Virus record (IMG/VR): IMGVR_UViG_3300038393_000909
Coordinates: 34,229-98,228 of that record
Direction: 5' to 3' (one strand)
Source of the DNA: a virus
DNA: 64,000 nucleotides
Part shown: piece after piece, positions 158 to 62,844 of the stretch
Layout of the letters: each line of letters opens with the position of its first letter
Position numbering within the stretch: the stretch's first letter is position 1
The notes under the pieces: model-generated
The model's database searches: none
What the model was told of the DNA's origin: nothing
The model's input: only the letters and a program-made list of their open reading frames with translations
Program-made: the position numbers and the translations under genes

Positions 158-177
158 CGTTTGCATTAATGAGAACG
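158..177. promoter_or_regulatory. 20-bp palindromic site
   Basis: CGTTTGCATTAATGAGAACG before dut; TTGCTG at 144. Confidence 0.7.
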
Positions 178-191
178 AAGCGGAGGACGCG

Positions 192-650
192 ATGCTCATC
201 GAATTCAAACACCTCACCGAGACCAGCCGGGCGCCGACCAGGGCTACTGAGGGCGCTGCAGGTTTCGATCTCTACGCCGACCTGATGCAGCACGGCCAGA
301 GCGAGGCCGTCATCGAAGCCGGATTCCGCGGCTTGGTTCAGACAGGTATCGCGATTGCCCTACCGAAGGGCTATGTCGGAATGGTTTGCCCGCGCTCGGG
401 CCTAGCGCTCAAGCACGGCATCACCGTCCTCAATGCCCCCGGCATCATCGACAGAGATTATCGCGGCGACGTCGGTGTCATCCTGCACAATGCAAGCCCG
501 AACCCGTTCGTGCTCAAGCACGGCGACCGCATCGCCCAGCTGGTTCTTGGCATCATCCCGTACGAGCCTGTCCTATCGTCTGTGGATGACCTAGACGCGA
601 CGGCGCGCGGCGCTGGAGGGTTTGGTAGCACCGGAATGGGTGCGAACTGA
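192..650 (+). CDS. dut: dUTPase (trimeric)
   Basis: Motifs AGFDL, PRSGLA, GIIDRDYRG, RIAQL, RGAGGFGSTG; ATG at 192 after GGAGG. Confidence 0.95.
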   Translation: MLIEFKHLTETSRAPTRATEGAAGFDLYADLMQHGQSEAVIEAGFRGLVQTGIAIALPKGYVGMVCPRSGLALKHGITVLNAPGIIDRDYRGDVGVILHNASPNPFVLKHGDRIAQLVLGIIPYEPVLSSVDDLDATARGAGGFGSTGMGAN

Positions 651-1210
651 TGGGCCTGGGATCAGCCATGGCTGGGGGCAATCCCCAGGACGAGCGGCAG
701 GCGAATGACTTTTATGCCACGCCGCCTAGCGTGACCGTAGCACTACTGCAGCAGGAGGAATTCGGACCCAAGATCCACGAATGCGCGTGCGGAAACGGAG
801 CCATGTCTATGGTCCTCCAGCTGGCCGGCTACGAGGTGGTCTCGACTGATATCCGCCCGCTCGGGTTCGGCTCAAAGCAGGATTTCCTCACGCTCGAGAA
901 GCCCTTAGCAGATACGGTGATCACCAACCCGCCCTTCTCGAAGGCTGCGGCGTTCATCGAGCATGGTCTCGGTACGCTCAAGCTTCGAAAAATGGCTCTT
1001 GTGTTGAAGAGCACGTACTGGCATGCAGCCGGGCGCCGCAATTTATTCGAACGGTTCACCCCGTCCGCGGTTTACCCTCTGCTATGGCGACCCGACTTCC
1101 TCTCGAAGGGGCGGCCAACCATGGAGATCATGTGGTGTGTGTGGGACGCGGCGCATACCGGCGCCACGATCTACAGGCCCCTCCCGCATCCCGACAAGGT
1201 GAAGCCATGA
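650..1210 (+). CDS. DNA amino (N6-adenine) methyltransferase, phage type
   Basis: DFYATP, ECACGNG (SAM binding), ITNPPF catalytic motif. Confidence 0.85.
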   Translation: MGLGSAMAGGNPQDERQANDFYATPPSVTVALLQQEEFGPKIHECACGNGAMSMVLQLAGYEVVSTDIRPLGFGSKQDFLTLEKPLADTVITNPPFSKAAAFIEHGLGTLKLRKMALVLKSTYWHAAGRRNLFERFTPSAVYPLLWRPDFLSKGRPTMEIMWCVWDAAHTGATIYRPLPHPDKVKP

Positions 1211-1334
1211 CCGCTGCGATTGCACTCATCTCCGCTTCTATCGGTGGCAGCCTCGGCGCCCTGACCATGGCTCTGATCATCGGCGGTGGTCAGCGCAAAT
1301 CGAATTCGAACGACTAGCCGATCGAGGGGGTCCG

Positions 1335-1709
1335 ATGCCGTTTGCCAAGCGTGAGGGTACCGACAGGAATGTCCGCGAACCCTACACCGAGGAAGAGATC
1401 CTCAAGGCGATCGACATGAAGTATCGCCTGAAGCTTACGTGGCCGATGATTGCAGATCGCCTGGGTCGATCACCGGCCTCGCTTGCCGTTTATACATCCC
1501 AGTATCGCAAGGGGAAGCTGACCTTCGGCCGCCACAAGTCGCGCCTGATCTATGAGGAAGTTGCTCAGGCTCTGATCGACGGAGCGAAGATGCAGGACTG
1601 CGTGGTCCAGTTTGGCGTCAAGCGCACGACCCTTGTCATGGGTCTCAGGCGCTACGGCTGGGATCAGGAGACGATCGAGGAAGCTCGTCAGTACAGGAAG
1701 GCAGCATGA
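1335..1709 (+). CDS. HTH-containing protein
   Basis: YTEEEI...LTWPMIADRLGRS helix-turn-helix pattern; SD GAGGGG. Confidence 0.6.
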   Translation: MPFAKREGTDRNVREPYTEEEILKAIDMKYRLKLTWPMIADRLGRSPASLAVYTSQYRKGKLTFGRHKSRLIYEEVAQALIDGAKMQDCVVQFGVKRTTLVMGLRRYGWDQETIEEARQYRKAA

Positions 1710-2590
1710 CGACGATCACGGCCAAGGTTATCGAGCACTCGGTCTCACGCCACGGTATCGAACTAGCGACTCTGCAGCTCCGCTTCCCACGATTCGTGCT
1801 GGCAGAGTTCAACACGCACCGGGTTTTCTCGCGCAATGCTCGGTCGAGTCGAGCAGTGCCGGTCGAGCGTATGATTCAGGAGATCGAGACCGACCCGGTG
1901 ATCCCGCTCCACTGGGGTGCGAACCAGAAGGGCATGCAGGCCAGCCAGGAGTGTGATGCCGAGGTCGAGGCCTGGAACTACCTGGGTTGCCCATCCGGTC
2001 CGTTCTTGGAGGAAGTTACGAACCGTGAGGCTTGGCTTCTCGCTCGTGACTGGGCCGTCGACTCAGCAAAGGCATTTGCAAAAGCTGGCTACCACAAGCA
2101 GGTCGTGAACCGGCTGCTCGAGCCGTTCATGCACATTGACGTCCTGGTGTCGTCTACGAACTGGTCGAATTTCCTCGCACTGCGCGATCACCCGGACGCC
2201 GAGCCGCACATCGCCATCCTTGCCCGTGAGATCAGGGCGGCACTCGATGGCTCGACGCCCTGGCTGCTGCAGCCCGGCGACTGGCACCTCCCCTACATCT
2301 CGACCGAGGAGCGCAACGCTCACGACCTCGACACCCAGCGTAAGCTCTCTGTCGCTCGGTGCGCACGGATTTCCTACACGCCGTTCGATGGAAACGGATC
2401 GATCGATGCCGAGCTGGCCCGGTACGAGTCCCTAGTCGGGTCTGCGCCGATACACGCGTCTCCTTGCGAGCATCAAGCAACGCCGGACTACCGTATTCCC
2501 TATGCACCGCACTGGAAGCATGCAGACCAGCACCGCAACTTTAGGGGCTGGCGACAATTTCGTGCCATGATTCCGTGCGATACTCTCTGA
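1706..2590 (+). CDS. thyX: FAD-dependent thymidylate synthase, phage type
   Basis: EFNTHRVFSRNARSSRA, HKQVVNRLLEPF, ARCARISY, HASPCEHQA. Confidence 0.9.
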   Translation: MTTITAKVIEHSVSRHGIELATLQLRFPRFVLAEFNTHRVFSRNARSSRAVPVERMIQEIETDPVIPLHWGANQKGMQASQECDAEVEAWNYLGCPSGPFLEEVTNREAWLLARDWAVDSAKAFAKAGYHKQVVNRLLEPFMHIDVLVSSTNWSNFLALRDHPDAEPHIAILAREIRAALDGSTPWLLQPGDWHLPYISTEERNAHDLDTQRKLSVARCARISYTPFDGNGSIDAELARYESLVGSAPIHASPCEHQATPDYRIPYAPHWKHADQHRNFRGWRQFRAMIPCDTL

Positions 2591-2610
2591 TGTACTGATC
2601 CGAGTTCTCA

Positions 2611-2895
2611 ATGATCACCCTGACCAAGACCCAGCGCGAGAACGCTGACCAACTCAGAACCATCCTCGATCAGGTGATCAAGGGAAACCAAGCCACCACC
2701 ATACCTGTCGAGGGTGGCATGGTCATGTACGATGTCGTGGTTGTGATGGATGCTCTGGCGCGTACCGTCGCGAACATCCTCGACATCTCATCCACCGAGG
2801 TGCGCCGCCAGCAACGGCTCAACTACTTTGAGAAGGTGCTCCTCGACACTCTGTATGCGAGCGACAAGAAGAATCGACCAACTGATTCTACCTAG
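2611..2895 (+). CDS. hypothetical protein
   Basis: ORF fills the gap with typical codon usage. Confidence 0.6.
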   Translation: MITLTKTQRENADQLRTILDQVIKGNQATTIPVEGGMVMYDVVVVMDALARTVANILDISSTEVRRQQRLNYFEKVLLDTLYASDKKNRPTDST

Positions 2896-2896
2896 T

Positions 2897-2916
2897 CGTT
2901 TGCATTAATTGGAATA
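2897..2916. promoter_or_regulatory. 20-bp palindromic site
   Basis: CGTTTGCATTAATTGGAATA before SLT gene. Confidence 0.65.
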
Positions 2917-2926
2917 GGAACCCTCC

Positions 2927-3403
2927 ATGCGACCCAAGACCTACCTCGCCGCCCTGGCTCTGGCCATGGTGGCTGGCACGGCACAGGCCCATGTGGTCAA
3001 GCACCGCCATCATCGTCACCATCACCACGCCTACAGGCACCAGGATACCGGAGCAATTCAGCAGCAGGTCACCAGCGCAGCGCTCCGTCACGGTGTCCCC
3101 GTCGCCCTGGCGCACGGCATCGTCCGCGCTGAGAGCAACTACCGCTGCCACGTCAAGGCTTCAGACGGCCTCAGCCAAGGCATCATGCAGGTTCGGCCAC
3201 AGACGGCCCGCAGCGTCGGGGTCTACGGCTCCATGAACGACTGCGCCAATAGCCTCGAGGCCGGCATGCGCTACCTCAAGCAGGCGTTGATCAAGGCCGG
3301 TGGTAACTGGGGCTGGGCCGCCACAATGTACAATCGCGGAATCGCAGCCAAGGCTACGATGTCTAGCTACGCTGCCCGCGTCCTGCGCCTCGCCCATCAA
3401 TAG
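2927..3403 (+). CDS. secreted lytic transglycosylase (SLT domain)
   Basis: Signal peptide; AES, GIMQV, AGMRYL, YNRG motifs; His-rich linker. Confidence 0.85.
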   Translation: MRPKTYLAALALAMVAGTAQAHVVKHRHHRHHHHAYRHQDTGAIQQQVTSAALRHGVPVALAHGIVRAESNYRCHVKASDGLSQGIMQVRPQTARSVGVYGSMNDCANSLEAGMRYLKQALIKAGGNWGWAATMYNRGIAAKATMSSYAARVLRLAHQ

Positions 3404-3511
3404 CTCCACCACTGGCTGGGAACAATTCGAACAGCCCTGCGATTTCCCGTTTGCATTCCTCGTCACGGCGGGCTAATGCAAACGGGTCACCCAATACCGA
3501 CGGAGGGATCT

Positions 3512-4054
3512 GTGGTTCCGAGCCAGGACCGCCGGAAGCCGCGCAAGCCGCCCATCGGCGCGCTCACGCAGGACGCGAAGAACGCCATCATCCGCGATCG
3601 GATCGCCGGACGTCCCGCCCGCGACATCGCGAAGGACTGGTTGATCAGCCAGAACTACGTCTGGGTGCTGACCCGGCACGTCGCTCACTTGGTGCCGAAG
3701 AAGATCCCGCGCGGTAAGAGGGCCGCCATCAAGGCCGCAGAGAAAGAGGAACAGGATCGCGCCATCCTCGCCAAGCTCCTGGCCGGTGTCCCGCGCAAGA
3801 AGGTCATGGCTGAGTTCGGCGTCTCGCGCATGAAGCTTGTCCGTGTGATGCGGCAGTACGGAGACGGTGTCGTGCTCGGCTATGAGAATCCTCTCGAGGA
3901 GGAGATCCTCAATGCCTACGACGCTTGCAAGAAGCCGCACCGCGTGGCGATCCAGGTCGGCGTCGATCCCAAGACCGTCTACCGCGTCATCTATCGGCGC
4001 AGGCGGCTCCAGAATGCGGCGAACAACAACGCGTTCCTGAGGGCGGCGGCATGA
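3512..4054 (+). CDS. multi-HTH DNA-binding protein
   Basis: Three HTH-like segments (ARDIAKDWLIS, KVMAEFGVSR, VAIQVGVDPKTVYR); GTG start after GGAGGGA. Confidence 0.65.
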   Translation: MVPSQDRRKPRKPPIGALTQDAKNAIIRDRIAGRPARDIAKDWLISQNYVWVLTRHVAHLVPKKIPRGKRAAIKAAEKEEQDRAILAKLLAGVPRKKVMAEFGVSRMKLVRVMRQYGDGVVLGYENPLEEEILNAYDACKKPHRVAIQVGVDPKTVYRVIYRRRRLQNAANNNAFLRAAA

Positions 4055-4287
4055 GCACGGCTGCGATCCAGCGTCTGGAGATGCTGCGGAGGTTTAAGAG
4101 CCGTGAGTGGGAGGTGCTGGCGCAGCTGGGGCTGACGAAGCCGCAGGACTTCAGGATCGTCAACTGGCTGGTCGACAAGGGCTGGCTCGAGACACACCCG
4201 GTGAGGTTCCTGACCCACGCGCGCATCACCGACACCGGCTTCGATATCCTCGCCCAGGCCGGGGGCGATGTAACTGGGTGGGGCTGA
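4051..4287 (+). CDS. small winged-helix-like protein
   Basis: ATGA overlap with previous stop; LVDKGWL...RITDTG. Confidence 0.5.
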   Translation: MSTAAIQRLEMLRRFKSREWEVLAQLGLTKPQDFRIVNWLVDKGWLETHPVRFLTHARITDTGFDILAQAGGDVTGWG

Positions 4288-4290
4288 GCC

Positions 4291-4539
4291 GTGAAGCAGT
4301 CTGAGATCGAAGCCTACATGGAACAGAAGCGGCGCGACCGTGAGGACATTGAGGTCGCCAAGGGCGAGCGCATCTTCGATGTCATCAAGGCGGCGCTGGT
4401 AGCCGAGTCTCAGCACTACGAGTGGGAGCGTCCGCCGCACTACCGCGAAGCGATGATCAAGCTTCGCGAGGTCTTCGAAGAAGTCGTGCGCGAGGTGCTC
4501 GTGGATGATCGCGTCATGACTCGTGTCGATTGGGATTAG
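4291..4539 (+). CDS. hypothetical protein
   Basis: Tightly packed ORF. Confidence 0.55.
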   Translation: MKQSEIEAYMEQKRRDREDIEVAKGERIFDVIKAALVAESQHYEWERPPHYREAMIKLREVFEEVVREVLVDDRVMTRVDWD

Positions 4540-4548
4540 TGACCAGCC

Positions 4549-4746
4549 ATGGATAAGTACGACACCACCGACATCCTCCACCGCCTCAAGGCACAAGCCC
4601 GCACCGCCCAGGTCGAGGGCCGCTTCGTGCTCGCCAACACCCTGACCCTGGCGGTGGCCGAGATCGATCGCCTGCGCGCCGAGATCGAACGCCTGAAGCG
4701 GATCAGCGCTGAGGTGAGCCATGTCTGCGGCCATGACGATTACTGA
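4549..4746 (+). CDS. hypothetical coiled-coil protein
   Basis: AEIDRLRAEIERL pattern common in small phage proteins. Confidence 0.55.
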   Translation: MDKYDTTDILHRLKAQARTAQVEGRFVLANTLTLAVAEIDRLRAEIERLKRISAEVSHVCGHDDY

Positions 4747-5074
4747 CGATACCCCGCTGCGTCTGGCGGACGCGGTTGTAATTGCATTTCCCCATGGAGG
4801 CATGACTGAGGCCGGGCTGCGCAGGGAGGCCAAGCGCGGGCGCCTTGAAATCGAACGGATCGCCGGTAAGGACTTCGTCACCCTTGCCGCGATCCGAGAG
4901 ATGAGAACCCGATGCCACGTCCAGCGAAGGGCGCAAGACTCTGGCTCAGGCCCGAGCGCCTCGACGATCAGGGACGCGTGCGTGAGCGATCGACATGGAT
5001 CATCCGGGATGGATCAAAGACGGTCAGCACGGGATGCGCTCCTGAAGCGCGTGCGGACGCTGAAAAGTGCCTGA
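4721..5074 (+). CDS. xis: excisionase-like protein
   Basis: PLRLADA...GLRREAKRGRL..ERIAGKDFVTLAAI; overlaps 5' end of integrase. Confidence 0.75.
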   Translation: MSAAMTITDDTPLRLADAVVIAFPHGGMTEAGLRREAKRGRLEIERIAGKDFVTLAAIREMRTRCHVQRRAQDSGSGPSASTIRDACVSDRHGSSGMDQRRSARDALLKRVRTLKSA

Positions 5075-6213
5075 GCGCCTACATTGAGCAGAAGTACCGC
5101 CCGGCGCGCAGGCGGCGTGAGATCGAGGAGATCGGGATCGCTGACGTCCTGGCGATCTACCTCGAGGATACCCGCGAATCCCAGGCCAACAAGCGCGCCT
5201 TCGACGGGCGCATCGAGCGCCTCGCTGAATGGTGGGGCGAGAAGACGCTGTCCGAGGTCACGGGCGAGACGTGCCGGGCCTATGTCGAGCACCGCGCATC
5301 CGCCGAGCGACAAGCGGTCAGTGGCAAGCGCGGAGCCGTCGGGAGAAAGGGCACCAGCGGCGGAGCGCGCCGCGACCTTGAGGACCTGCGCGCGGCGATC
5401 AATCATCACCACGGACAAGGACTCCACCGCGAGGCCATCCGCGTGATCCTGCCCGAGAAGGGGGCGGCCCGCGATCGATGGCTGACCCGGTCCGAGGCCG
5501 CGCGCCTCGTCTGGTTCTGCTGGCGCTACCGCGATACCCAGACCTGGAACAAGGGCACGCGCGCCGGCAAGAGCGTCGTGACCAACAAGCGGTCGCTGCG
5601 CCATATCGCGCGCTTCATCCTGATCGGGCTCTATACCGGGACGCGGGCCGGGGCCATCGCTTCAGCCTCGCCCTATAAGAGCGCCGGTCACTCTTGGGTC
5701 GATCTCGAGAGCGGGCGGTTCTACCGGCTCGCCGAGGGCAAGAAGGCGACGAACAAGCGACAGCCGACCGCGCGCATCCCATCGCGCCTGCTCGCCCATC
5801 TCAGGCGATGGTCCAGAGCGACGCAGGGCAAGGACGGGCCGCCCGTCATGCGGACCCATTTCGTCGAATGGAGGGGCAAGCCGGTCGGGTCGGTGAAGGT
5901 CGCTTTCGGCCGGGCCGTGCGCGCGGTCGGCCTGGGCGATGACGTGTCGCCCCACACCCTGCGGCACACCGCCGCGACGTGGCTCATGCAGCGCGGCGTC
6001 GACAAATACGAGGCGGCCGGATTCCTCGGCATGTCGCTCAAGATGATCGACGAGGTCTACGGCCACCACCATCCCGATTTCCAGGACAGCATCGACGCGG
6101 CGTTCGCGACCCGCAAGCCGGCGAATCAGGGTCCGCACCGCTTCGCCGGACGGCACGTTTCTGTTGGCATAACTGTGGGCGTAGAGGGTGACGCCGCCAA
6201 GGATATGGTGTAA
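4912..6213 (+). CDS. int: tyrosine integrase
   Basis: YTGTR, HTLRHTAATW, LG-M...YGHH catalytic motifs. Confidence 0.92.
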   Translation: MPRPAKGARLWLRPERLDDQGRVRERSTWIIRDGSKTVSTGCAPEARADAEKCLSAYIEQKYRPARRRREIEEIGIADVLAIYLEDTRESQANKRAFDGRIERLAEWWGEKTLSEVTGETCRAYVEHRASAERQAVSGKRGAVGRKGTSGGARRDLEDLRAAINHHHGQGLHREAIRVILPEKGAARDRWLTRSEAARLVWFCWRYRDTQTWNKGTRAGKSVVTNKRSLRHIARFILIGLYTGTRAGAIASASPYKSAGHSWVDLESGRFYRLAEGKKATNKRQPTARIPSRLLAHLRRWSRATQGKDGPPVMRTHFVEWRGKPVGSVKVAFGRAVRAVGLGDDVSPHTLRHTAATWLMQRGVDKYEAAGFLGMSLKMIDEVYGHHHPDFQDSIDAAFATRKPANQGPHRFAGRHVSVGITVGVEGDAAKDMV

Positions 6214-6392
6214 GTACTTGAGAATGTTGGTGGGCCCGGCAGGACTCGAACCTGCAACCAGACCGTTATGAGCGAGACGGTGATACGTTAAGTATTTGAA
6301 ATCATTCGATCGATTGCGTGCAATCAATGCCGATTGGCGCGTTTTGTTCTCATTCTCAGCGATCGTTTCTGTGGGATAACTGTGGGCGTAGA
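6156..6392. repeat. direct repeats flanking attP core (putative integrase arm sites and IHF sites)
   Basis: CGTTTCTGT..ATAACTGTGGGCGTAGA at 6156-6185 and 6364-6392; TAAGTAYTTGA at 6211 and 6289 resembles IHF consensus on the minus strand. Confidence 0.7.
6228..6274 (-). other. attP core: 3' half of tRNA-Ile(CAT), anticodon loop to CCA
   Basis: Minus strand CGCTCATAACGGTCTGGTTGCAGGTTCGAGTCCTGCCGGGCCCACCA directly after int; no 5' half present. Confidence 0.88.
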
Positions 6393-6396
6393 ACGA

Positions 6397-6612
6397 ATGG
6401 ACACCGAAGAAAACGACACCCTCTACGCCGACGCGCTCCTCGGCCGCGACCCAAACTGGAACATGATCGACGAGCTTGAGAAGCGCGGGCTCGGTCGATG
6501 GACAGGCGGCTTCCATGACCGTTGGGACTGGAACCCTGGAGCGGTCAGGGCTCTGCCGGTCGATGAGCAGAAGGCCCTGTACGAGCGGATCAAGGAGGCA
6601 TGGGGCCGATGA
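6397..6612 (+). CDS. hypothetical protein (paralog of 60363-60623)
   Basis: LEKRGLG...W.W...ALY pattern. Confidence 0.6.
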   Translation: MDTEENDTLYADALLGRDPNWNMIDELEKRGLGRWTGGFHDRWDWNPGAVRALPVDEQKALYERIKEAWGR

Positions 6613-6812
6613 CCGACACAATCCGTCAGACCGTGGAAGCCTTCATCGACGGCCTGCGTGACCGACATCCCCTCACCATCACCGACGACGTCGACATCGC
6701 CGTCACAGCGAACCTTGAAACGCAGGAGCTATTCGTGAAGCTGAGCGGCAAGACGCCGTATGGGAATGCGTATCTAGCTAAGGTGCTGGAACGGATGGGA
6801 GAGTTGGAATGA
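6609..6812 (+). CDS. hypothetical protein
   Basis: ATGA overlap coupling. Confidence 0.5.
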   Translation: MTDTIRQTVEAFIDGLRDRHPLTITDDVDIAVTANLETQELFVKLSGKTPYGNAYLAKVLERMGELE

Positions 6813-7039
6813 CCGCGGCAGGCAGACTGTTTACGATCGCAGCAGCAGCTGCATGGATCGGGTTATCCGTCTGGACGCTCTTGGCTCTCTACCGCGCGGA
6901 AGACACAGTGCAGCCACTGCCACCCGGTGCGACCCTGGTCGCCATCGTCGGGGTCATGTCCTGGGCTCTTGAGTGCGGCAATCGCCTGATCAAGGCCGTG
7001 CGAAGCCTGTGTTCTGGTCTACCGGAGATGCCAGCATGA
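6809..7039 (+). CDS. small membrane protein
   Basis: Two hydrophobic segments; coupled start. Confidence 0.5.
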   Translation: MTAAGRLFTIAAAAAWIGLSVWTLLALYRAEDTVQPLPPGATLVAIVGVMSWALECGNRLIKAVRSLCSGLPEMPA

Positions 7040-7241
7040 CCGACACGAGAGACCGCACCGCCCTGAAGCGCGAATCCGTCGACCAGATGCTCGCGGTTAT
7101 CAGATCCGGCGGCCAACCGTTCCCTGGTTATCGGGTCGAGCTGCCGGCTGACTTCGACCTGGAGGAGGCCTACCGCACGGGTGCAGTGGAGGTGATGGTC
7201 ACATTGCCGCCTACGCTGGATCGATTCGAGTTCGACACAGG

Positions 7242-7700
7242 ATGGCTGGAACCAAAGGGCGCTTGACGCCCACCCTCCGTGCAGATATTAGCCAATTGGC
7301 TACGATCGAATCGGAGAAACCCGTGGAGCCGCCACCAATGCACGATGCCGCAGCAGACCGCGTCGTCAAGATCATCGAGACATTCCGGTCCGTGGATCAC
7401 CTCATGGGAACGGGATCGATCATGGTCTTCGTGGCGGTGGCCAGGGAGCCAGGGCTGACGGCCGATGACTATACCAAGCGGACCGGCTCCATCCGCCCAG
7501 TGATCTACAGGCTGCTGGCCGAGCTTGGCGGATCGACGCGCCGAGCGGATCAGGAAATCGGGCGCGGCTTGGTCGATGTGATCCCGCACCCAGAGGACAA
7601 GAGGCAGAACCTCTACCGTCTAACTCCACGTGGTGAGATCCTGTGGAGGAAGGTGCTGCAGGCTGCGAGCCTCGAAGAAGCCAGCCAGGAAGGAGCTTGA
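7242..7700 (+). CDS. MarR-like winged-helix protein
   Basis: GLV...HPEDKRQNLYRLTPRG wing motif. Confidence 0.7.
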   Translation: MAGTKGRLTPTLRADISQLATIESEKPVEPPPMHDAAADRVVKIIETFRSVDHLMGTGSIMVFVAVAREPGLTADDYTKRTGSIRPVIYRLLAELGGSTRRADQEIGRGLVDVIPHPEDKRQNLYRLTPRGEILWRKVLQAASLEEASQEGA

Positions 7701-7745
7701 CCGTATCCTCCCTGGCCCTACAGCCTAGCAGGCCCACCAGGGAGT

Positions 7746-8258
7746 TTGATGATGTCGTGGCAGAAGGTTCGCAACAGGCGCATGCTCATGCTGGCGCCGT
7801 TCCTTCTTGGCGTGGTCGTGATCGGCCAGCTCTATCCCGCAGACTGGAGCGAGGCGAACGCGCAGGGCGCTCAGCCTGCAGCCGCCAGTGGCACTCCAGA
7901 CCTTGAGGCCGCAAGCAGGGATGCGAGGGTGGTATCCCCTGACGTCTTCACTGACAACTTCGAGCAGTATGCCGGCTCCTGGGTGCGCTTCCAGGACCAC
8001 AGCCTGCACTGTGGCCAGACGCGGGACCGAACGAAGCAGTGCTTCAATACTGACGGGACAGCGGCCGTGCTCGTCTTCTTCGACAAGCTCGCGACTCTCG
8101 AGGCTAACGGCTGGACATCGCCGAAGGAGTTCGGTCAGTACGATCGCAGCCTCGCGTGCCCGAACCCTCTGTTCTATTTCTCAGGCGCGGTACCCACGAC
8201 CAACCCGCACGCTGTCGGGGTCTCGGTCGAGACATTGTACTGCGCCTCTCCGCACTAA
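7746..8258 (+). CDS. putative secreted/membrane-anchored protein
   Basis: Basic N-terminus plus hydrophobic segment, four Cys. Confidence 0.55.
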   Translation: MMMSWQKVRNRRMLMLAPFLLGVVVIGQLYPADWSEANAQGAQPAAASGTPDLEAASRDARVVSPDVFTDNFEQYAGSWVRFQDHSLHCGQTRDRTKQCFNTDGTAAVLVFFDKLATLEANGWTSPKEFGQYDRSLACPNPLFYFSGAVPTTNPHAVGVSVETLYCASPH

Positions 8259-8261
8259 GTG

Positions 8262-8537
8262 TCAGTCCTCGAATCCGAGGCGATCCAAATAGCCCTGGAG
8301 ATCCTCGTAGCCACCGACGTGGTCGCCCTTGTGCCAGATCTGAGGAACCGTCTTGAAGCCGGCGTCGATGAGGCGCTGGCGCTCGTCGGGGTTCTGGCTC
8401 AAGTCGACATAGGCATGTCCAAGTCCGCGCTCGTCCAGGAGCCTCGTGGCCAGCACACAGAACTTGCAGCTCGGACGGCCGACCACCACGAAGGCATGGC
8501 CGCGCTCGCTGACGTAACGCAAGGGCTTGTCGGTCAT
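8262..8537 (-). CDS. glutaredoxin
   Basis: CKFC, TVPQI, VGGYEDL. Confidence 0.9.
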   Translation of the reverse strand: MTDKPLRYVSERGHAFVVVGRPSCKFCVLATRLLDERGLGHAYVDLSQNPDERQRLIDAGFKTVPQIWHKGDHVGGYEDLQGYLDRLGFED

Positions 8538-8538
8538 A

Positions 8539-8790
8539 TCACTCTTCCATCGCCGCCGTGATCACAGCCGGCCAGCGTTCGATCATCTCGTTGTTCATCT
8601 CGGCAGCCATCGACCCGGTGATGTCGAACATCGCCTCGAGCGCACGCAGGGCGGCGTCGACAGACTTCTCACGGCGCTGGCGCATCACGATCGCCTTGAC
8701 CCGGTCGGTGGTGTTGATGGCGAAGTTCGTCCAGGCATCTGGATCGATCACCTCAGCGAGGTGACGGACCTTCTCGGGGATTCGCATCAT
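8539..8790 (-). CDS. hypothetical protein
   Basis: MMRIPEKV... overlaps stop of upstream gene. Confidence 0.55.
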   Translation of the reverse strand: MMRIPEKVRHLAEVIDPDAWTNFAINTTDRVKAIVMRQRREKSVDAALRALEAMFDITGSMAAEMNNEMIERWPAVITAAMEE

Positions 8791-9278
8791 GTGGTCTTCG
8801 CCTTGGGGATGGTCTCGCTCCATTCCCGCTTGAGCGCCATGACCTTCTTCATGACCTCCTGGTATCCGTCGATCTTGTAGCGATCGTCGATCAGTGATCC
8901 AAAGGCTTCGGCGTCGAGGAGGATGATGGCGCTCGCTGCGATGTGAGCGAGGTGAGGGATCTTGCTGTCGTCGGCGAGGTCGATGCCAGACTTGTACTCG
9001 TCGAGGTGCCTCTCCATTGCGGAGATGTACGTGTTTGTCGGGATAGGAACTGATCGCCAATTTACGGGCCCATATTTCCAGGCCCCCTGCTCCAGCGCCG
9101 CAAGGATCCAGAGCTTGGCGATCGGCGACATCAGGTGCGGCTCAGGCTTCAGGCGCCCTGCCCCGGTCTTCGGGTTCTCGGCAGGCTTGGTGCTCAGCTC
9201 GAACCGCTGCTGCTGGATCGGTGGATCTTTTGGTCGATCTGCCCAGCACCCTATCGTCTCGAAGCCGTCCATGAACAT
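8787..9278 (-). CDS. dATP/dGTP diphosphohydrolase-like (DUF5664) protein
   Basis: NPK, GAWKYGPVNWR, AMERHL, DSKIPHLAH, LIDDR. Confidence 0.8.
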   Translation of the reverse strand: MFMDGFETIGCWADRPKDPPIQQQRFELSTKPAENPKTGAGRLKPEPHLMSPIAKLWILAALEQGAWKYGPVNWRSVPIPTNTYISAMERHLDEYKSGIDLADDSKIPHLAHIAASAIILLDAEAFGSLIDDRYKIDGYQEVMKKVMALKREWSETIPKAKTT

Positions 9279-9309
9279 GCGAATTACCCTTGCCTTCTGG
9301 CTGGTTCTT

Positions 9310-9329
9310 CATTAGCAATAATGCAAACG
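9310..9329. promoter_or_regulatory. 20-bp palindromic site
   Basis: CATTAGCAATAATGCAAACG between divergent genes. Confidence 0.65.
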
Positions 9330-9349
9330 GAGAGCAAGGCACAATTCGA

Positions 9350-9766
9350 ATGGACACCCTCAAGCGCCGAGTTCGTGACGCGGCATGGTGGCTCCGGTAC
9401 CGGGTTCAGCCAGAGCATCGCTACCACGTCGTCGACACCGGTCTGAAGCCGGGGTTCCACGACATCGTCGACGTCATGCTTCACGCCAACATGGCGCTGC
9501 TCGACCGGTACATCGGCGAGTGCGGCGGCGCGATGGATGTCCAGGACAAGATCGAGTCTCTGCGCAAGGAGGCCGACTACCTGGAGAGTGAAGGCTTCGA
9601 CGATCAGGCGCTACTGATCTACCGTCAGGCTGACTGCATGGAGGACGCGCTCGCGATTCACCTGTGGTGGAACCTGCAGCGTCCTATCGATGGACGTGCT
9701 GATCATAAGACTGACCAGAACATGCTGCACCGTCTGATCGATCTGCGCCTCACGCTCTGGACCTGA
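9350..9766 (+). CDS. hypothetical protein
   Basis: ORF ending LIDLRLTLWT, a C-terminus typical of a phage family. Confidence 0.6.
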   Translation: MDTLKRRVRDAAWWLRYRVQPEHRYHVVDTGLKPGFHDIVDVMLHANMALLDRYIGECGGAMDVQDKIESLRKEADYLESEGFDDQALLIYRQADCMEDALAIHLWWNLQRPIDGRADHKTDQNMLHRLIDLRLTLWT

Positions 9767-9767
9767 T

Positions 9768-10043
9768 GTGAGTGAGGTCCACGACCTGGAGGCATTCTTC
9801 CGCGCCAAGCTCGCCGAGCTGACCGAGAAGGTATCGCCCGACGGGATGGCTGGGATGATCGCGAAGCTGCAAGCCGAGTACGTCAGGCAGTTTCATATGC
9901 GATGGGGGATCGCCATGGTACAACAGGGCGACGAGATCGTGCCAGCCAGTTATGCGGATGCTGAGAAGCTCGAGGCACTGCACGACACCGACGAGCGCGA
10001 CTGGATGTTCGATCCGCGCACGCTCGGACGGTTCGTCAAGTGA
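9768..10043 (+). CDS. hypothetical protein
   Basis: Adjacent ORF, converges with the late operon. Confidence 0.5.
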   Translation: MSEVHDLEAFFRAKLAELTEKVSPDGMAGMIAKLQAEYVRQFHMRWGIAMVQQGDEIVPASYADAEKLEALHDTDERDWMFDPRTLGRFVK

Positions 10044-12641: not shown

Positions 12642-12652
12642 CGCCGATCCTT

Positions 12653-12680: not shown

Positions 12681-12708
12681 ATTGTTCGAAGGGCCGGGCG
12701 CCGCGATC

Positions 12709-13412: not shown

Positions 13413-13432
13413 CGTTCGAATTAATGCAAACG
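13413..13432. promoter_or_regulatory. 20-bp palindromic site
   Basis: CGTTCGAATTAATGCAAACG. Confidence 0.75.
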
Positions 13433-15030: not shown

Positions 15031-15050
15031 CGTTCGAATTAATGCAAATG
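15031..15050. promoter_or_regulatory. 20-bp palindromic site
   Basis: CGTTCGAATTAATGCAAATG; TTGACA at 15064-15059 on minus strand. Confidence 0.75.
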
Positions 15051-17199: not shown

Positions 17200-17219
17200 C
17201 GTGTGAATTAATTCGAACC
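17200..17219. promoter_or_regulatory. 20-bp palindromic site
   Basis: CGTGTGAATTAATTCGAACC before endolysin. Confidence 0.65.
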
Positions 17220-23242: not shown

Positions 23243-23262
23243 CGTTTGTTTTAATTGGAAGG
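23243..23262. promoter_or_regulatory. degenerate 20-bp palindromic site
   Basis: CGTTTGTTTTAATTGGAAGG before tail chaperone. Confidence 0.5.
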
Positions 23263-25479: not shown

Positions 25480-25499
25480 TGTTCGAATTAATTCGAACG
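25480..25499. promoter_or_regulatory. 20-bp palindromic site
   Basis: TGTTCGAATTAATTCGAACG before sheath. Confidence 0.75.
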
Positions 25500-30746: not shown

Positions 30747-30766
30747 CATTTGCAATAATGCTAACG
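30747..30766. promoter_or_regulatory. 20-bp palindromic site
   Basis: CATTTGCAATAATGCTAACG. Confidence 0.65.
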
Positions 30767-36004: not shown

Positions 36005-36036
36005 GGGATTCTCGCTGTTCGAATTGTTGGGAGCCG

Positions 36037-40597: not shown

Positions 40598-40617
40598 GAT
40601 TCGAATTAATTCGAACT
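40598..40617. promoter_or_regulatory. 20-bp palindromic site
   Basis: GATTCGAATTAATTCGAACT before capsid gene. Confidence 0.75.
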
Positions 40618-41643: not shown

Positions 41644-41663
41644 GGTTCGCTTTAATTCGAATG
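41644..41663. promoter_or_regulatory. 20-bp palindromic site
   Basis: GGTTCGCTTTAATTCGAATG; TTGACG at 41630. Confidence 0.65.
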
Positions 41664-42858: not shown

Positions 42859-42878
42859 CGTTTGCATTAATGCTAACG
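42859..42878. promoter_or_regulatory. 20-bp palindromic site
   Basis: CGTTTGCATTAATGCTAACG. Confidence 0.75.
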
Positions 42879-45047: not shown

Positions 45048-45746
45048 CTAGGGGCGACGCGCTTCGTGCCGGGTTAATTTACCGCGGCTACGCCACTGAA
45101 GGCGGATGCCGCACGATCTTGAGCACGTCCTTATCTTCGGATAGCCCATGAACTCGGAGCCGCAGATCTCGCAGATCTTTGGAATACGCTGTCGTCCTTC
45201 CCGCCTGCGAGTCCTGGCCGCACAAACGTTAGAGCAGAAGCGAGCGCCATCCTTGTGACGGCTGCTCAGCTTCTTCGACTCGAATGACTTCCCACACTCG
45301 TGACACTGGAACGTGCGCGGCTTCTGATCTGCAAAGATCTTCAGTCCATGTTCTCTGTGCCAAGCAATACCCTCAGCGCTCGCATGCCACTCCTTAGTCA
45401 GTGGACGGATACGATCGAGGTTCTGGATAACAGCGGGAGACTTGCTCCATGTACCAAGCTCGCCATGGCGACGGCGATGCTCATCGACAGTGATGCACTC
45501 GAGGTTATCGATATCATTGTTGAGTGTGTCTTCATCCGCATGATGGACCTCGTGTCCATCAGGGATTGGACCGTGAGCATCCTTCCAGATCTCCCGGTGC
45601 AACGACTCAACGCCACGCTTACGATCGGCAATGCCGGGCGTATAATACCGACGGTGAGCTACCTGCTTCGCGTTCGGGTAGCGTCTGAACTTGATCCCCT
45701 TGTAGACGATGACATCTACATCGGGCTTCGTTTGCATCTGATCCAT
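45048..45746 (-). CDS. HNH endonuclease with zinc ribbons
   Basis: LHR..W....GPIP.G.EVHH.D....NN...NLE; CxxC and FCS..C repeats; lower GC. Confidence 0.88.
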   Translation of the reverse strand: MDQMQTKPDVDVIVYKGIKFRRYPNAKQVAHRRYYTPGIADRKRGVESLHREIWKDAHGPIPDGHEVHHADEDTLNNDIDNLECITVDEHRRRHGELGTWSKSPAVIQNLDRIRPLTKEWHASAEGIAWHREHGLKIFADQKPRTFQCHECGKSFESKKLSSRHKDGARFCSNVCAARTRRREGRQRIPKICEICGSEFMGYPKIRTCSRSCGIRLQWRSRGKLTRHEARRP

Positions 45747-45767
45747 GGTTAGCAGCTAATGCAAACG
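45747..45767. promoter_or_regulatory. palindromic site with 1-nt insertion
   Basis: GGTTAGCAGCTAATGCAAACG; TTGACG at 45781-45776 on minus strand. Confidence 0.6.
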
Positions 45768-52890: not shown

Positions 52891-53244
52891 TCAGACGAAG
52901 TGAGCTGGCAGCGCCCAACCTTCGGCCACGGTTATGATGGTGGCGACTGCAGCACTGGAGCCAGCAGCGACACCCCACTGCGCGAAGTTGCTTCCGTCCC
53001 ACTTGAAGGCGAACTCAGCACCGAGCCACGCCACGACTGCTGAAGTCGGAGGCGTCATGTGCTTGAGGTCATGCTCTCTCTGGCCTGCTTCCCGGCCGTA
53101 AAAGAACGTCGAGACGATCAAGGCGCCGATGATCGGTGCGTACGCGACATTAAACAGGCCGAGCACGGACGCGATGACGAGCGTGTAGCCTGCAGACAGC
53201 AGCGTGTGCGTGATCAGCGGGCGGGCCAGGAGCCACTTGAGCAT
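52891..53244 (-). CDS. membrane protein
   Basis: Hydrophobic segments, FFYGRE..Q.E; start at 53244 follows palindrome. Confidence 0.6.
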   Translation of the reverse strand: MLKWLLARPLITHTLLSAGYTLVIASVLGLFNVAYAPIIGALIVSTFFYGREAGQREHDLKHMTPPTSAVVAWLGAEFAFKWDGSNFAQWGVAAGSSAAVATIITVAEGWALPAHFV

Positions 53245-53247: not shown

Positions 53248-53267
53248 CGTTCCAATTAATGCAAACG
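53248..53267. promoter_or_regulatory. 20-bp palindromic site
   Basis: CGTTCCAATTAATGCAAACG. Confidence 0.7.
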
Positions 53268-55903: not shown

Positions 55904-56533
55904 CTACGAATTTTGATCTGATCTCATAAACATTCTGTGCTTGGTATGGTCGAACCGGAGGTAAGCATCATGTGCGGCCTCCGGTGTTCCAAATGAGCCG
56001 ATGTAGTAATTCACGCCACCGATCCTTCGCTGAGCAACGTACACTCCTCGAACCGCATCGAAGGTTACGCCAGTCGGCAGATCGCGGTGCTTAATCGGCT
56101 TAGGATGACGAGCAATACGAGATGGAACTGAACGGCGACGAGCGGCTGGCTTACGGCACGCTTTGTCTTGTCTGTTCTCAAGTGTATTCGTTTGTGCTCT
56201 GACGCTACGGCCTCCGTCTTTTCCGGTTAGATCAAGATCTTTCAGGATCTGACGAACCCGCTCTCGCGAGATACCGAATGTATTTCCGATCGCAGCGAGC
56301 GACAGGCCTGACTTAAACATCTCGACGATGCGCTCTGCACGAGTTTCCGTCTCTTCTTCGGTCAGAGGCGGGCGTCGACCAGGAATATCGATGCCGCGCG
56401 CAAGCAAGATGCGTCTTGCCTTGTCGTTACCGCAGCCGTACTCCCTGGCGATCTGCGCGACCGACAGGCCGTCGTCTACCATAGCTCTGAGCCTAGAGGC
56501 AGGAACCCTGTCGATCGATACGTGAATAGTCAT
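55904..56533 (-). CDS. HTH (sigma-70 region 4-like) plus AP2-domain DNA-binding protein
   Basis: SL..IG..FGISRERVRQI; GV.FD...YIGSFGTPEAAHDAY; lower GC. Confidence 0.7.
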   Translation of the reverse strand: MTIHVSIDRVPASRLRAMVDDGLSVAQIAREYGCGNDKARRILLARGIDIPGRRPPLTEEETETRAERIVEMFKSGLSLAAIGNTFGISRERVRQILKDLDLTGKDGGRSVRAQTNTLENRQDKACRKPAARRRSVPSRIARHPKPIKHRDLPTGVTFDAVRGVYVAQRRIGGVNYYIGSFGTPEAAHDAYLRFDHTKHRMFMRSDQNS

Positions 56534-58626: not shown

Positions 58627-58806
58627 TCAGCCCCGAATCAGCACGTTGGCGACGAGGATCAGGGTGGCGATGGCGGCGATGAGGTAGCCGACCACGACGA
58701 AGCCCTCGTAGGGGTGGTCGTGCTGAGCTGGCTGACGGGGGAGCAGGAGGCAGCCGACGGAGAGCCAGCCAAGGATTGAGATGGTGAGAGCGGCGTTGCC
58801 AGACAT
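58627..58806 (-). CDS. small two-TM membrane protein (59 aa, not in ORF track)
   Basis: MSGNAALTISILGWL...YLIAAIATLILVANVLIRG. Confidence 0.45.
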   Translation of the reverse strand: MSGNAALTISILGWLSVGCLLLPRQPAQHDHPYEGFVVVGYLIAAIATLILVANVLIRG

Positions 58807-58879: not shown

Positions 58880-58899
58880 CGTTCGAACTAATGCAAACG
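58880..58899. promoter_or_regulatory. 20-bp palindromic site
   Basis: CGTTCGAACTAATGCAAACG. Confidence 0.7.
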
Positions 58900-59248
58900 G
58901 GATCGACGTGGGTGGAACTGGATCGGGTGTCGCGCCCGTCTCTCGCGGAACCACGACCCTTCACCCGGTGTCAGGGGAGCGGCCGTCATCCGGTGAGGCG
59001 CCGTCCCTTCCCTCACTCTCTCCCCTGGCTGGTGTTCTTAAGGACGGGCCGAGGCGATAGCCGAGACGTTGTGGAACTCCATCGGTGCTCGCTTCCGCTC
59101 CGCCCGAAAGGCGTCCTAGACGATTCGAAGACGGAATGCAAATGCAAATCGAACGGCGCTATGTGCGGCAGCCTGTCGCAGGCAAGGAAATCAAGGACTT
59201 AGATCCCCTCGCCGTCCACAGGTTTCGTACGAATTCGCTTGACAGATT

Positions 59249-60362: not shown

Positions 60363-60623
60363 CTACGCCATCGCCGGCCTCTGTCCGCCATAGTGTTGCA
60401 CATCGGTGTAGGTGATCGCTTCGAGCTTAAGGTAAAGCGCGTTGAGATCGCGCAGTTCCAGCGCCTCCAGGGCAGATCTGCTCCAGCGCCATCCAGCAGT
60501 GCCGCTGAGCGACCGCGAACCGAGACGGCGCATCTCGAGGTAGGTGATCAGACTTGCTGGCGGATGCATACGCGAGACCGCGATGGCCATCAGTCTGTGT
60601 TCAGGATTGCTGTGTGTCGACAT
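60363..60623 (-). CDS. hypothetical protein (paralog of 6397-6612)
   Basis: LEMRRLG...W.W...ALY pattern. Confidence 0.55.
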   Translation of the reverse strand: MSTHSNPEHRLMAIAVSRMHPPASLITYLEMRRLGSRSLSGTAGWRWSRSALEALELRDLNALYLKLEAITYTDVQHYGGQRPAMA

Positions 60624-60919
60624 GGGATGTGCACGCTGCTCTGGGGGGGCCGCAGATCTATTGGCAGCGGTGCCAGATTGCAAACGCTTGGAATTGCTCA
60701 ATTGTACCCCGGATCTTAAGATTCCGGTCAGATCTGGACAAAAAGAACCTCCCCTCCCCCTGCCCGTCGCAGTGGCAGTGTGCCTGCAGTGTGGGCATCG
60801 CACGGATGTCAAGAGATATTCGCGTGCGCCTGGGTTACGGGAGAAACATGGCTGTGACAGGATTGTAACGCGGACGGAAACGTGGCGGCGTTTGTTCCAT
60901 AACCATGTATTATGAACGA

Positions 60920-61280
60920 CGATGGGTTTTGGAATGAGGGTCTGAATGCGGGGCGGTTTTGGAATGAGAGGGCTCCGTTTGGAATTGGGGGTCTGAATTC
61001 TCGGTCTCTTCCCCTCAGTACCCCCGTGCCCTGTGCACAAAAAGACACACCCCCAACGATTAGCGCCCCAACCCTTAGCGTGGGACCCCCCCTCGCCTTC
61101 GACTGAGTTGCACGCAATCCTTTGGTGCGCGGCTCGTACCTGGCACGGGTCCGCCGAGCTGGGTCCGCCGAGCTGGGTCCGCCACCGACGCCGCGCGGGT
61201 CCGCCGACGCGCTGCGCTGGCCCATGGCAGCCGCGCCGAGACCGGGACGCCCGAGACTGCGCCGAGACCGTCCCGGCCGC
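60920..61280. repeat. cluster of short direct repeats at transcription divergence point
   Basis: TTTGGAAT x3, GGGTCTGAAT x2, C-tracts, GGGTCCGCC x4 (61147, 61161, 61175, 61197), CCGAGAC x3. Confidence 0.75.
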
Positions 61281-61669
61281 TGGCGGTGCCTCCCTGGCGA
61301 TTGCCGAGGGTCGGAACCGGAGGCGCCCGCGATAGCACGAACCATGCCAACCCCGGCATGTTCGAATTGCATTCCGTGCATAGCAGGGATGCGCTAGACT
61401 GGGTGCAACTCCAACCATGGTTCGTCCATTGTCTGTGTGTCGGGACGGCGATTCGAACCGACGCCCGCCGGGGCTCCCCGGTCTAGACGGAGGTCCAAGC
61501 TACACAAGCCCTAGCAGGGCGCGGGCACGGGATGTCACCCGTCGGGGTCCGCAGGTCACTTGCCAGTCCGCCCGCCGTGAGGCGTCGCAGACTTCCAGAC
61601 CGCCCCAGATAGTCGCCACGGTCGCAGGACCGCAGGACATGACAGGCAACGCGATGCAGGCAAGCATCC

Positions 61670-62050
61670 GATCCGTTGGGTGGCGCAAGAGCCGGTTAGA
61701 TCCGGTAGCCAACCCAGAAGCGAAAGCTCACGGTTGAACGGACCCAAGCCGAGACATGAGGCGGACCTAGACTATCAGGAACCCGCGGGATGTTGGGTCA
61801 ACCCTACAGCAACGCCGCAGCAAGCGGCCAACGATAGCTGATGGCAGTAATTCAAGGCGCACACAACAACAGTCCGGCCCGTAGTGATTAGCTTCACCAA
61901 GTGACAGCACAAGGTCCGGTTGCTCTCTGCAACGTGAGACGGTTCGCCTTGTGTCGGTTCGGTCACTGACAAACAAACCTGCAACATGCGACGGGGCCGG
62001 GATGCGAGATGCTCCCGGCCTGTCGTCGTCTCTCTCACGCAAGGGAGTGT
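61670..62050 (+). ncRNA. candidate long structured leader/ncRNA
   Basis: Nested helices with G-U pairs and GNRA loops on + strand. Confidence 0.4.
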
Positions 62051-62055
62051 TGCAC

Positions 62056-62523
62056 ATGATTGAGATTGAACTTGCTACCTGCGGCGTGCGGCTTGCCTGC
62101 TACGCAACGCAGGACACTGACGGAACGCTGCACGTTACGCTTCGCGACAAGTTCGCCGGAACGTCTATCAAGTCTGTTACCTTTGCCGGTCACGGCAACG
62201 CGGTGTTGAAGGAGGGTCCCCGCAAGGGATTGCTCCCGATCAACTATCCCGCCGCTAAGTTTCTCCGCTCGCTGAATGACGCCGCTTCGCAAGAGGATGC
62301 CGAATCGCTGATCTGGTCGGCGCTTGGCTACGGCAGGCAAGGCGCTCGCGAGCGCTTCCCATCCCTTCATCCGGGTCCGGCACGGGCGTTCCACTGCCAC
62401 CTACCGCGGATGAATGGTGACCGGCGCGAGCAGGACAGTAAGCGCCACCTCTACAGCAAGGCCGAAGCCCGCGCGATCCAACGTGCTAACGCGGCCAAAC
62501 ATGAGAGCTACAAGCGTGCGTAA
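62056..62523 (+). CDS. hypothetical early protein
   Basis: ATG after AAGGGAG. Confidence 0.55.
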   Translation: MIEIELATCGVRLACYATQDTDGTLHVTLRDKFAGTSIKSVTFAGHGNAVLKEGPRKGLLPINYPAAKFLRSLNDAASQEDAESLIWSALGYGRQGARERFPSLHPGPARAFHCHLPRMNGDRREQDSKRHLYSKAEARAIQRANAAKHESYKRA

Positions 62524-62650
62524 GCTACTCGCCTACATCTTCTGTGACCGGATAACGCATCGCCGCCACATCCTCCGCGATGGCGGAGTAACCACGGTGC
62601 AATACTGGCGCTCCGGTAAGGTCACCTATCTGAGGAACGTCGAGCTATGA
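62516..62650 (+). CDS. small hypothetical protein
   Basis: GTG overlapping previous stop. Confidence 0.4.
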   Translation: MRKLLAYIFCDRITHRRHILRDGGVTTVQYWRSGKVTYLRNVEL

Positions 62651-62826
62651 TCGGACTAACGCGCGATCAAATCCGGTGGGCGCTCTCGCACGATTGGGCG
62701 CTGTATCCGACCCTGTGCGGGACCGGGGTTATCTGCCTCGATGTAACCGTGGTCAACGGCGTAACCGCTAGCCACGTCGTGACGCACTTCGATTACGCCA
62801 AGCTCCGCCGTTGGGCTGGCTACTGA
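62647..62826 (+). CDS. small conserved phage protein (59 aa, not in ORF track)
   Basis: QIRWA.SHDW...LRRWAGY pattern. Confidence 0.6.
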   Translation: MIGLTRDQIRWALSHDWALYPTLCGTGVICLDVTVVNGVTASHVVTHFDYAKLRRWAGY

Positions 62827-62844
62827 TTCGAATTATTGCAAAGG
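62825..62844. promoter_or_regulatory. 20-bp palindromic site
   Basis: GATTCGAATTATTGCAAAGG; TTGGGC at 62811. Confidence 0.65.

Follow-up and report, generated by a model that had tools for sequence, protein, structure and literature searches.

Virus record IMGVR_UViG_3300038393_000909 raises the question of why one short AT-rich palindrome should be repeated across a GC-rich phage genome, in front of early, late and lysis genes alike. In this study, we analysed a stretch of 64,000 nucleotides of this record (the window), corresponding to bases 34229-98228 of a 98,228-bp IMG/VR contig, together with the rest of the contig, related phages and the bacterial hosts of those relatives. A first-pass annotation, made from the letters of the window, had proposed that one dimeric phage protein binds this 20-bp element all over the genome. 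Our analyses suggested that the element may form a dispersed network of operators for a dimeric, phage-encoded repressor, a palindromic analogue of the C1 operators of phage P1 and of mycobacteriophage stoperators, a reading to which we give about an even chance. Positions refer to the window unless they are marked as genome positions.

Enrichment, placement and symmetry of the element

The element is a near-palindrome with the consensus cgTT(T/C)G(C/A)AT-TA-AT(G/T)C(G/A)AAcg. In the window, 13 matches to CGTTYGMATTAATKCRAACG were identified at three mismatches or fewer (158, 2897, 9310, 13413, 15031, 17200, 25480, 30747, 40598, 41644, 42859, 53248 and 58880), and none appeared in 100 dinucleotide shuffles. 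Two further sites, at 23243 and 62825, carry four mismatches each. The first-pass annotation had counted about 15 full copies; these sites account for its count, except that the copy it placed at 45747 is a split pair of half-sites at 45729-45767, and the half-sites that it listed are present. When a position weight matrix (PWM) was run over the whole 98,228-bp genome, 31 hits of at least 8 bits and 21 of at least 20 bits were obtained, against 3.3 and 0.05 in Markov shuffles. Under a model of intergenic DNA only (58% GC), 0.98 hits would be expected at 8 bits and 0.005 at 20 bits; 29 and 20 were observed, and the lack of enrichment over such a background that had been named beforehand as the outcome speaking against the network was not what we found.

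The proposed intergenic bias was also observed. Among the PWM hits, 28 of 31 are intergenic, against 17% of the genome (binomial p = 7e-19), with genes and intergenic status defined by our own crude codon-based gene caller, which yields about 155 genes. Most sites end 3-20 nt 5' of a start codon, and several occupy the whole of a 30-50-bp gap within a co-directional operon. The downstream genes named in the first-pass annotation, for capsid, sheath, chaperone, lysozyme (its endolysin), dUTPase and SLT, hold as well, the sheath and capsid genes being named by homology to Bradyrhizobium phage BDU-MI-1.

Two half-site types, TTCGAAT (A) and TTTGCAT (B), can stand on either side, and the A/A, B/B, A/B and B/A combinations are all present. 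The interchangeable mixing claimed earlier is therefore real for the combinations and not fully random in order: in the direction of the gene, TTTGCAT is followed by ATTCGAA in 13 heterotypic sites and the reverse order is found in 4 (p = 0.05), which is a mild polarity. The mirror pairs 5/16, 6/15 and 7/14 (three of the eight pairs) are unpaired in 38-62% of copies with no compensating changes, and an Rfam scan of the element matched no family. The element is not a hairpin. The independent variation of the half-sites and the uncompensated mirror positions are better suited to a DNA-binding protein with two-fold symmetry than to a hairpin, and since both half types occur on both sides, each half appears to be read alone, as by identical subunits.

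Conservation in relatives and absence from host chromosomes

The closest named relative of this phage is BDU-MI-1, whose portal protein is 45% identical, and a megablast search against the phage collection gave no match and thus no detectable DNA similarity. Portal-based searches recovered 47 loci in IMG/VR and 4 in bacteria, the latter from Bradyrhizobium (three) and Methylobacteriaceae (one), and the enriched spacing between hexamer half-sites is 4 throughout these loci. The motif-bearing relatives comprise BDU-MI-1, IMG/VR contigs and prophages of Bradyrhizobium and Methylobacteriaceae, with portals 42-58% identical, and their family consensus is the 16-mer yTTGCwyGAATkCAAA. BDU-MI-1 holds 11 matches to a relaxed form of the motif (control 0) and 31 to TTTGC-N6-GCAAA; of two more relatives that are complete or nearly so, a 108,937-bp genome with terminal repeats (G008) holds 25 copies and a 124,582-bp Bradyrhizobium contig (G001) holds 20, all of them intergenic. 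For TTTGC-N6-GCAAA, 73 of 76 copies in these three genomes are intergenic. Strict copies lie 5' of orthologous SSB, HNH endonuclease, DUF7227 and capsid genes, at about 50% protein identity. The capsid gene has a cognate site 5' of it in all three complete relatives, and the cognate site just 3' of the portal gene is kept in nearly all relatives. Other site positions vary among genomes (matches to a loose pattern used in this comparison being discounted), and the set of controlled genes therefore appears to turn over.

The motif is absent from the host chromosomes. With the relatives' 16-mer in four genomes of the relatives' hosts (4.3-8.8 Mb), 71 of 72 hits at one mismatch or fewer fell in a prophage contig or region of about 110 kb, and the reversed-pattern control gave 0. 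Judged from this distribution, the reader of the motif is phage-encoded, because a host regulator would have sites in the host chromosome. The known boxes of the host regulators CtrA, LexA, FixK, Irr and EcfG were also rejected for their poor fit. An exact IMG/VR search with the 18-mer of this phage returned one unrelated 41%-GC contig (L089), a chance match, and a single-protein IMG/VR scan with the capsid protein returned nothing; the loci above came from an alignment-based scan. The literature searches made here gave no description of the motif, and its strings matched only by chance, for example in a primer from a paper on OhrR.

Numerous AT-rich copies scattered through a GC-rich genome could also be DNA-organising or partition sites, the alternative raised in the first-pass annotation, or selfish repeats without a regulatory role, of the repetitive extragenic palindromic (REP) or miniature inverted-repeat transposable element (MITE) kind. 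Some relatives do assemble as separate contigs of about 125 kb and are possible episomes. We consider this explanation very improbable: a search of the contig, which is estimated to be 81% complete, detected no ParB N-terminal domain, the sites are unclustered and tied to gene starts and gene direction, and they are kept 5' of orthologous genes in genomes without detectable DNA similarity.

Candidate binding proteins

Only two helix-turn-helix (HTH) proteins are conserved throughout the three motif-bearing relatives, a CI-like protein and a small XRE protein (genome about 6760-6990), and both are encoded outside the window. The first-pass annotation had named four candidates inside it (3512-4054, 7242-7700, 1335-1709 and 55904-56533), none of which has a homologue in these relatives; its further suggestion of a CI-like gene outside the window provided the best candidate. 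This protein has 324 residues (genome 19810-20784; L088:1432-2406). Its N-terminus matches HTH_26 at 23.5 bits (cut-off 22), homologues carry PF13443 or PF01381, which places it among Cro/C1-type HTH proteins, and the recognition helix STxLRLLN is conserved. Its C-terminus gives a weak Peptidase_S24 match (E = 0.03) that does not reach the cut-off. Of 50,697 phage records, only that of BDU-MI-1 has a homologue.

Residues 215-324 were modelled as a homodimer at 0.54, against 0.01 for the best control, with a partner predicted local distance difference test (pLDDT) value of at least 77 and at least 66% of contacts agreeing between runs. When proteins of solved structure were put to the same mark, 20 of 30 homodimers and 1 of 23 monomers reached it; the result may reflect likeness only, because S24 domains of the LexA/CI type have been solved as dimers. 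The CI-like gene of the relatives runs opposite to its arm, with degenerate motif copies 5' of it. In this phage, the 281-bp gap 5' of the gene contains two tandem direct copies of AATTGGAACTCGT, the half-site of type A; its only full site is very weak (2.6 bits).

Several other proteins were considered as binders and rejected. When 75 more small proteins were screened against Pfam, one with a DnaA_C domain (171 residues, genome 6215-6730; L084:1210-1725; 45 bits) and one with HTH_31 (genome 25313-25555) were detected, along with weak matches to Xre, Rrf2 and SAP; neither of these two proteins is conserved in the relatives. The product of g30043 (genome 30043-30540; L018:10043-10540) is an HNH endonuclease (CxxC...FDH...HxxCH), that of g3562 is a DUF7227/GP88-type phage protein, and g16058 has no informative relative. 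For g30043, which belongs to the early arm and is conserved, a motif copy overlaps the start codon in this phage, and all three relatives have one immediately 5' of the gene. The open reading frame (ORF) at 55904-56533 (minus strand) encodes 209 residues with HTH matches to Sigma70_r4, HTH_7 and, at the borderline, GcrA, plus an AP2 domain; it resembles the DNA-binding part of HNH homing endonucleases, has atypical codon usage and lacks a homologue in the relatives.

Proposed dispersed operators, direction and alternative readings

By its gene content the phage is temperate, since an integrase gene is present and the relatives are integrated prophages. In a dispersed repressor network, the 20-mer would be the operator of a phage-encoded, two-fold symmetric HTH protein, and the CI-like repressor, with its N-terminal Cro/C1 HTH and C-terminal S24-like dimerisation domain, would most likely be its binder; the small XRE protein may share the sites as a Cro-like partner. 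About 30 copies would act directly 5' of early genes (nucleotide and DNA metabolism), late genes (capsid, sheath, chaperone) and lysis genes, so that bound repressor would silence the whole lytic programme in the lysogen. First, local promoters would be occluded by the bound repressor. Second, read-through transcription would be blocked in the manner of a stoperator where sites occupy 30-50-bp gaps inside co-directional operons. The network is probably made up in part of promoter-operator cassettes and in part of roadblocks within operons. At the site that follows the portal gene, a separate TTGACA-N17-TAnnnn promoter lies just upstream of the motif, which would therefore cover about -6 to +10 there, a classic operator position.

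Several findings weigh against this reading. First, all 75 strict 16-mer copies of the relatives point in the direction of the local gene, not one of them matching on both strands; the 16-mer has an asymmetric GA centre; and a TGnC element, kept even within upstream coding sequence, lies 5 bp 5' of the 16-mer both in the relatives and in this phage. A plain symmetric dimer alone explains neither the directionality nor the TGnC element; the proposal of one dimeric phage protein acting genome-wide is favoured by the symmetry, the confinement to phages and the conserved CI-like predicted dimer, and leaves these two features unexplained. Second, the S24-like domain has GDNT in this phage, with Thr in place of the catalytic Ser, where close homologues have GDSSM or GDNSM, and the whole CI-like family has Arg (VR) at what we take to be the position of the catalytic Lys of LexA. 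These residues make RecA-type self-cleavage doubtful and the repressor analogy incomplete. Third, with the contig at an estimated 81% completeness, another regulator could be missing from it.

The TGnC element, T(-9)G(-8)nC(-6), extends the motif asymmetrically to about 27 bp, and its match to TTGACA averages 2.5, against 1.4 at control offsets; it resembles a weak, TTGmCn-like -35 hexamer at a fixed offset. Tentatively, the unit could be a directional composite, TGnC-N5-16-mer-yG, in which a symmetric dimer-binding core is joined to a polar function, and we regard this as possible though clearly short of probable. In one version, alphaproteobacterial myophages would have evolved, independently, a stoperator-type transcription roadblock based on a CI-like dimer. 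In the other, a phage factor would read the unit as a new promoter-operator cassette, of which copies stand ahead of about 30 genes. If either were true, a single distributed site, and not a regulatory cascade, would govern an entire family of temperate phages of 100-125 kb.

The same direction and extension would also suit a phage-specific promoter core or activator site. Under this view, host RNA polymerase would be guided by a phage factor to begin transcription inside the motif or immediately 3' of it, and the resulting short leaders would begin near the Shine-Dalgarno sequence. The orientation tracks the local gene even where a gene is set against its arm, purines are favoured just 3' of the motif, and the motif is phage-specific. 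Furthermore, in the relatives a GC-rich terminator-like hairpin abuts the motif of the capsid gene (BDU-MI-1 75149, G001:C21 42774, G008 68397), with no other conserved element before the gene, a position directly after a terminator that would suit a promoter; the TTTGCTT of the motif could serve as the U-tract of this hairpin, which is lacking 5' of the capsid gene in this phage. We nevertheless find the promoter explanation doubtful. Site logos contain no sigma-70 -10 element (A at -11, T at -7) 16-18 bp from TGnC, and no sigma-70 consensus match falls on a site in window 1-20000. The spacing would fit a sigma-54 promoter, but the second G of the -24 GG occurs in only 8 of 75 copies, and A-type halves lack GC. 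The genome yielded no sigma-70 region 2 domain, and none of the conserved genes is large enough for a single-subunit RNA polymerase. In addition, early, late and lysis genes could not be ordered in time by a single promoter class, half-sites interchangeable on both sides suit a dimer better than a polymerase, and the post-portal site already has its separate promoter upstream. Geometry argues against a MerR-type spacer operator, an activator position of class II or of the P1 Lpa type and a likeness to the MotA box of T4, all of which were rejected since only about 10 nt separate many sites from the start codon that follows.

This closeness to the start codon raises the question of an mRNA element, that is, a leader or intercistronic operator for a sequence-specific RNA-binding protein or nuclease that would act on translation or processing near the ribosome-binding site. 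The orientation with transcription is strict, and y-GGAG comes after the 16-mer in a conserved junction, GCAAA-y-GGAG. Where the full site lies further from the start codon, an extra (A)ATGCAAA stands directly 5' of GGAG, and sense-strand ATGCAAA occurs 26-28 times in the intergenic DNA of each relative, against about 3 expected. We judge such an element improbable. Hairpin covariation is absent, and where relatives have C at position 1, A is kept at 16 in all listed copies but one; two-fold symmetry would be useless in single-stranded RNA, and no Rfam family was matched. Moreover, where intergenic gaps are tiny, any site is bound to lie near the Shine-Dalgarno sequence, and the lone site at 9310, in a divergent gap, reads well on both strands.

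Comparison with known systems

A repressor that acts through many sites has precedents. The temperate myophage P1 (about 94 kb) has one repressor, C1, and 22 operators dispersed over its genome (PMC8546580). By our own comparison, the left part of the P1 consensus ATTGCTCTAATAAATTT resembles TTGCwyGAAT/TTGCATTAAT, which may be chance. The P1 operator is asymmetric whereas the element here is a near-palindrome, and the host clade differs. C1 is not known to be an HTH-S24 protein, unlike the CI-like candidate. In Streptomyces phage phiC31, the c repressor binds conserved inverted repeats (CIRs), 17-bp inverted repeats at many intergenic loci, often near terminators or promoters. The CIRs lie mostly in the early region and are not known to be concentrated before structural genes. 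The host, the repressor family and the sequence of phiC31 are unrelated to those of this phage.

In cluster A mycobacteriophages, the short gaps between genes in both arms carry over 20 copies of one operator/stoperator site, through which the prophage is silenced genome-wide (PMC9283540). The orientation of stoperators of the L5 gp71 type is correlated with transcription (PMC9283540), as it is for the sites here, which also lie inside a co-directional late operon. The first-pass annotation had seen in the sites a palindromic counterpart of stoperators rather than a lambda-like single switch, and their place within that operon agrees with it, under a network reading that we regard as evenly balanced. 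The stoperator is an asymmetric 13-mer bound by a monomer with two DNA-binding domains, whereas the element here is a near-palindrome of 16-20 bp with a predicted-dimer candidate; with interchangeable halves, it falls outside the strict definition of a stoperator. Its more than 10 copies far above chance, placed in short intergenic gaps, oriented with transcription and specific to the phage, are as expected of a dispersed-operator network. Lambda is similar in having palindromic sites of 16-20 bp that are read by a dimeric HTH repressor, S24-type in its C-terminal domain, and that can be shared by a small Cro-type HTH protein, but it has six operators at one switch, where about 30 sites here are spread over early, late and lysis genes. 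By these comparisons, the system would work like those of P1, cluster A and phiC31 but is not a member of any of them, because of its near-palindromic site, its CI-like dimer candidate and its alphaproteobacterial hosts.

Genome-wide control through a single site is known from few temperate phages, namely P1, the cluster A mycobacteriophages and phiC31. If the network reading is true, it would add an unstudied, widespread prophage family of nitrogen-fixing and plant-associated Bradyrhizobium and Methylobacterium, and a palindromic, dimer-read version of such control with candidate proteins. A cultured relative is at hand for testing, BDU-MI-1 on B. diazoefficiens USDA110. The motif may also be a practical marker that delimits prophages in host genomes and predicts immunity groups, with TTAA-centred sites in this phage against GAAT-centred sites in its relatives.

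Individual sites

On the plus strand, the site CGTTTGCATTAATGAGAACG at 158..177 (29.9 bits) lies 14 nt 5' of the dUTPase gene (192-650). An 11-codon mini-ORF at 134-169, with its own GGAG, begins in ATTCGAATG and stops at the TAA in the centre of this site; ATTCGAATG also overlaps start codons at 9344-9352, 41655-41663 and genome 15448. The plus-strand site at 2897..2916 (26.6 bits) occupies a 31-bp gap and lies 10 nt 5' of the SLT transglycosylase gene (2927-3403). A split pair, CGTTTGCAT-N19-ATGCAAACG, at 3448..3484 on the same strand stands 27 nt 5' of the HTH_23 gene (3512-4054), with an extra half-site at 3425, and a weak plus-strand site at 6293..6312 (15.7 bits) lies 3' of the integrase gene (4912-6213). 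The full site at 9310..9329 (27.1 bits), to which no strand is assigned, sits in a 72-bp divergent gap between 8787-9278 (minus strand, dATP/dGTP diphosphohydrolase) and 9350-9766 (plus strand).

The following sites are on the minus strand. A perfect-consensus site at 13413..13432 (34.1 bits) occupies a 30-bp gap, 9 nt 5' of gene 13188-13403, and a full site at 15031..15050 (32.8 bits) lies 19 nt 5' of gene 14508-15011. The phage lysozyme gene (16598-17191) is preceded at 8 nt by the full site at 17200..17219 (27.2 bits), and the tail assembly chaperone gene (22955-23230) at 12 nt by the degenerate site at 23243..23262 (17.3 bits). A near-perfect palindrome at 25480..25499 (31.5 bits) stands 64 nt 5' of the tail sheath gene (23973-25415). 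Further on, a full site at 30747..30766 (27.1 bits) lies 10 nt 5' of gene 30530-30736, and a weak site with one good half at 36016..36035 (10.1 bits) lies 11 nt 5' of gene 35720-36004.

The full site of the major capsid gene (39586-40563) is at 40598..40617 (26.9 bits), 34 nt 5' of the gene. The next, at 41644..41663 (25.5 bits), lies 147 nt 5' of gene 40618-41496; at this site a 99-residue ORF on the plus strand (41661-41960) begins in ATTCGAATG, and an Rfam search of 41630-41866 found no family. The full site at 42859..42878 (32.0 bits), 8 nt 5' of gene 42620-42850, is preceded by TTGCCC-N17-TACCAC and takes the post-portal position that nearly all relatives share. The split pair at 45729..45767, CGTTTGCAT-N21-ATGCAAACG, straddles the start codon of ORF 45048-45746. 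The full site at 53248..53267 (30.6 bits) lies 3 nt 5' of gene 52891-53244, with its internal GGAA as the Shine-Dalgarno sequence, and that at 58880..58899 (29.3 bits) lies 73 nt 5' of gene 58627-58806, with extra half-sites at 59123-59148. Back on the plus strand, the four-mismatch site at 62825..62844 (22.7 bits) lies 108 nt 5' of gene 62953-63168, at the start of the plus arm.

Genome organization and gene content

The contig is linear, with 61.6% GC and a CheckV completeness estimate of 81%. Its plus arm runs from genome 96.3 kb to the contig end and, if the genome is circular or permuted, resumes from base 1 to 44.3 kb; it encodes SSB, a DnaQ-like exonuclease, YqaJ, NinB, a helicase, class II ribonucleotide reductase, ThyX, dUTPase, a tyrosine integrase and SLT. 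The minus arm, from 95 to 44 kb, encodes terminase, portal, capsid, tail, lysozyme and a collagen/GH5 fibre. Where the arms diverge, 60363-61418 (minus strand) and its neighbours up to 63838 have a low coding score. A 351-residue ORF and six smaller ORFs there are without a Pfam family, and extra half-sites occur at 59123-59148, 61361 and 61451; around 53-64 kb, ten ORFs matched no Pfam family. Lastly, a 981-residue protein encoded at 49906-52851 (minus strand) combines collagen triple-helix repeats with a GH5 cellulase domain and, from these domains, is probably a tail fibre with a glycan-degrading tip.

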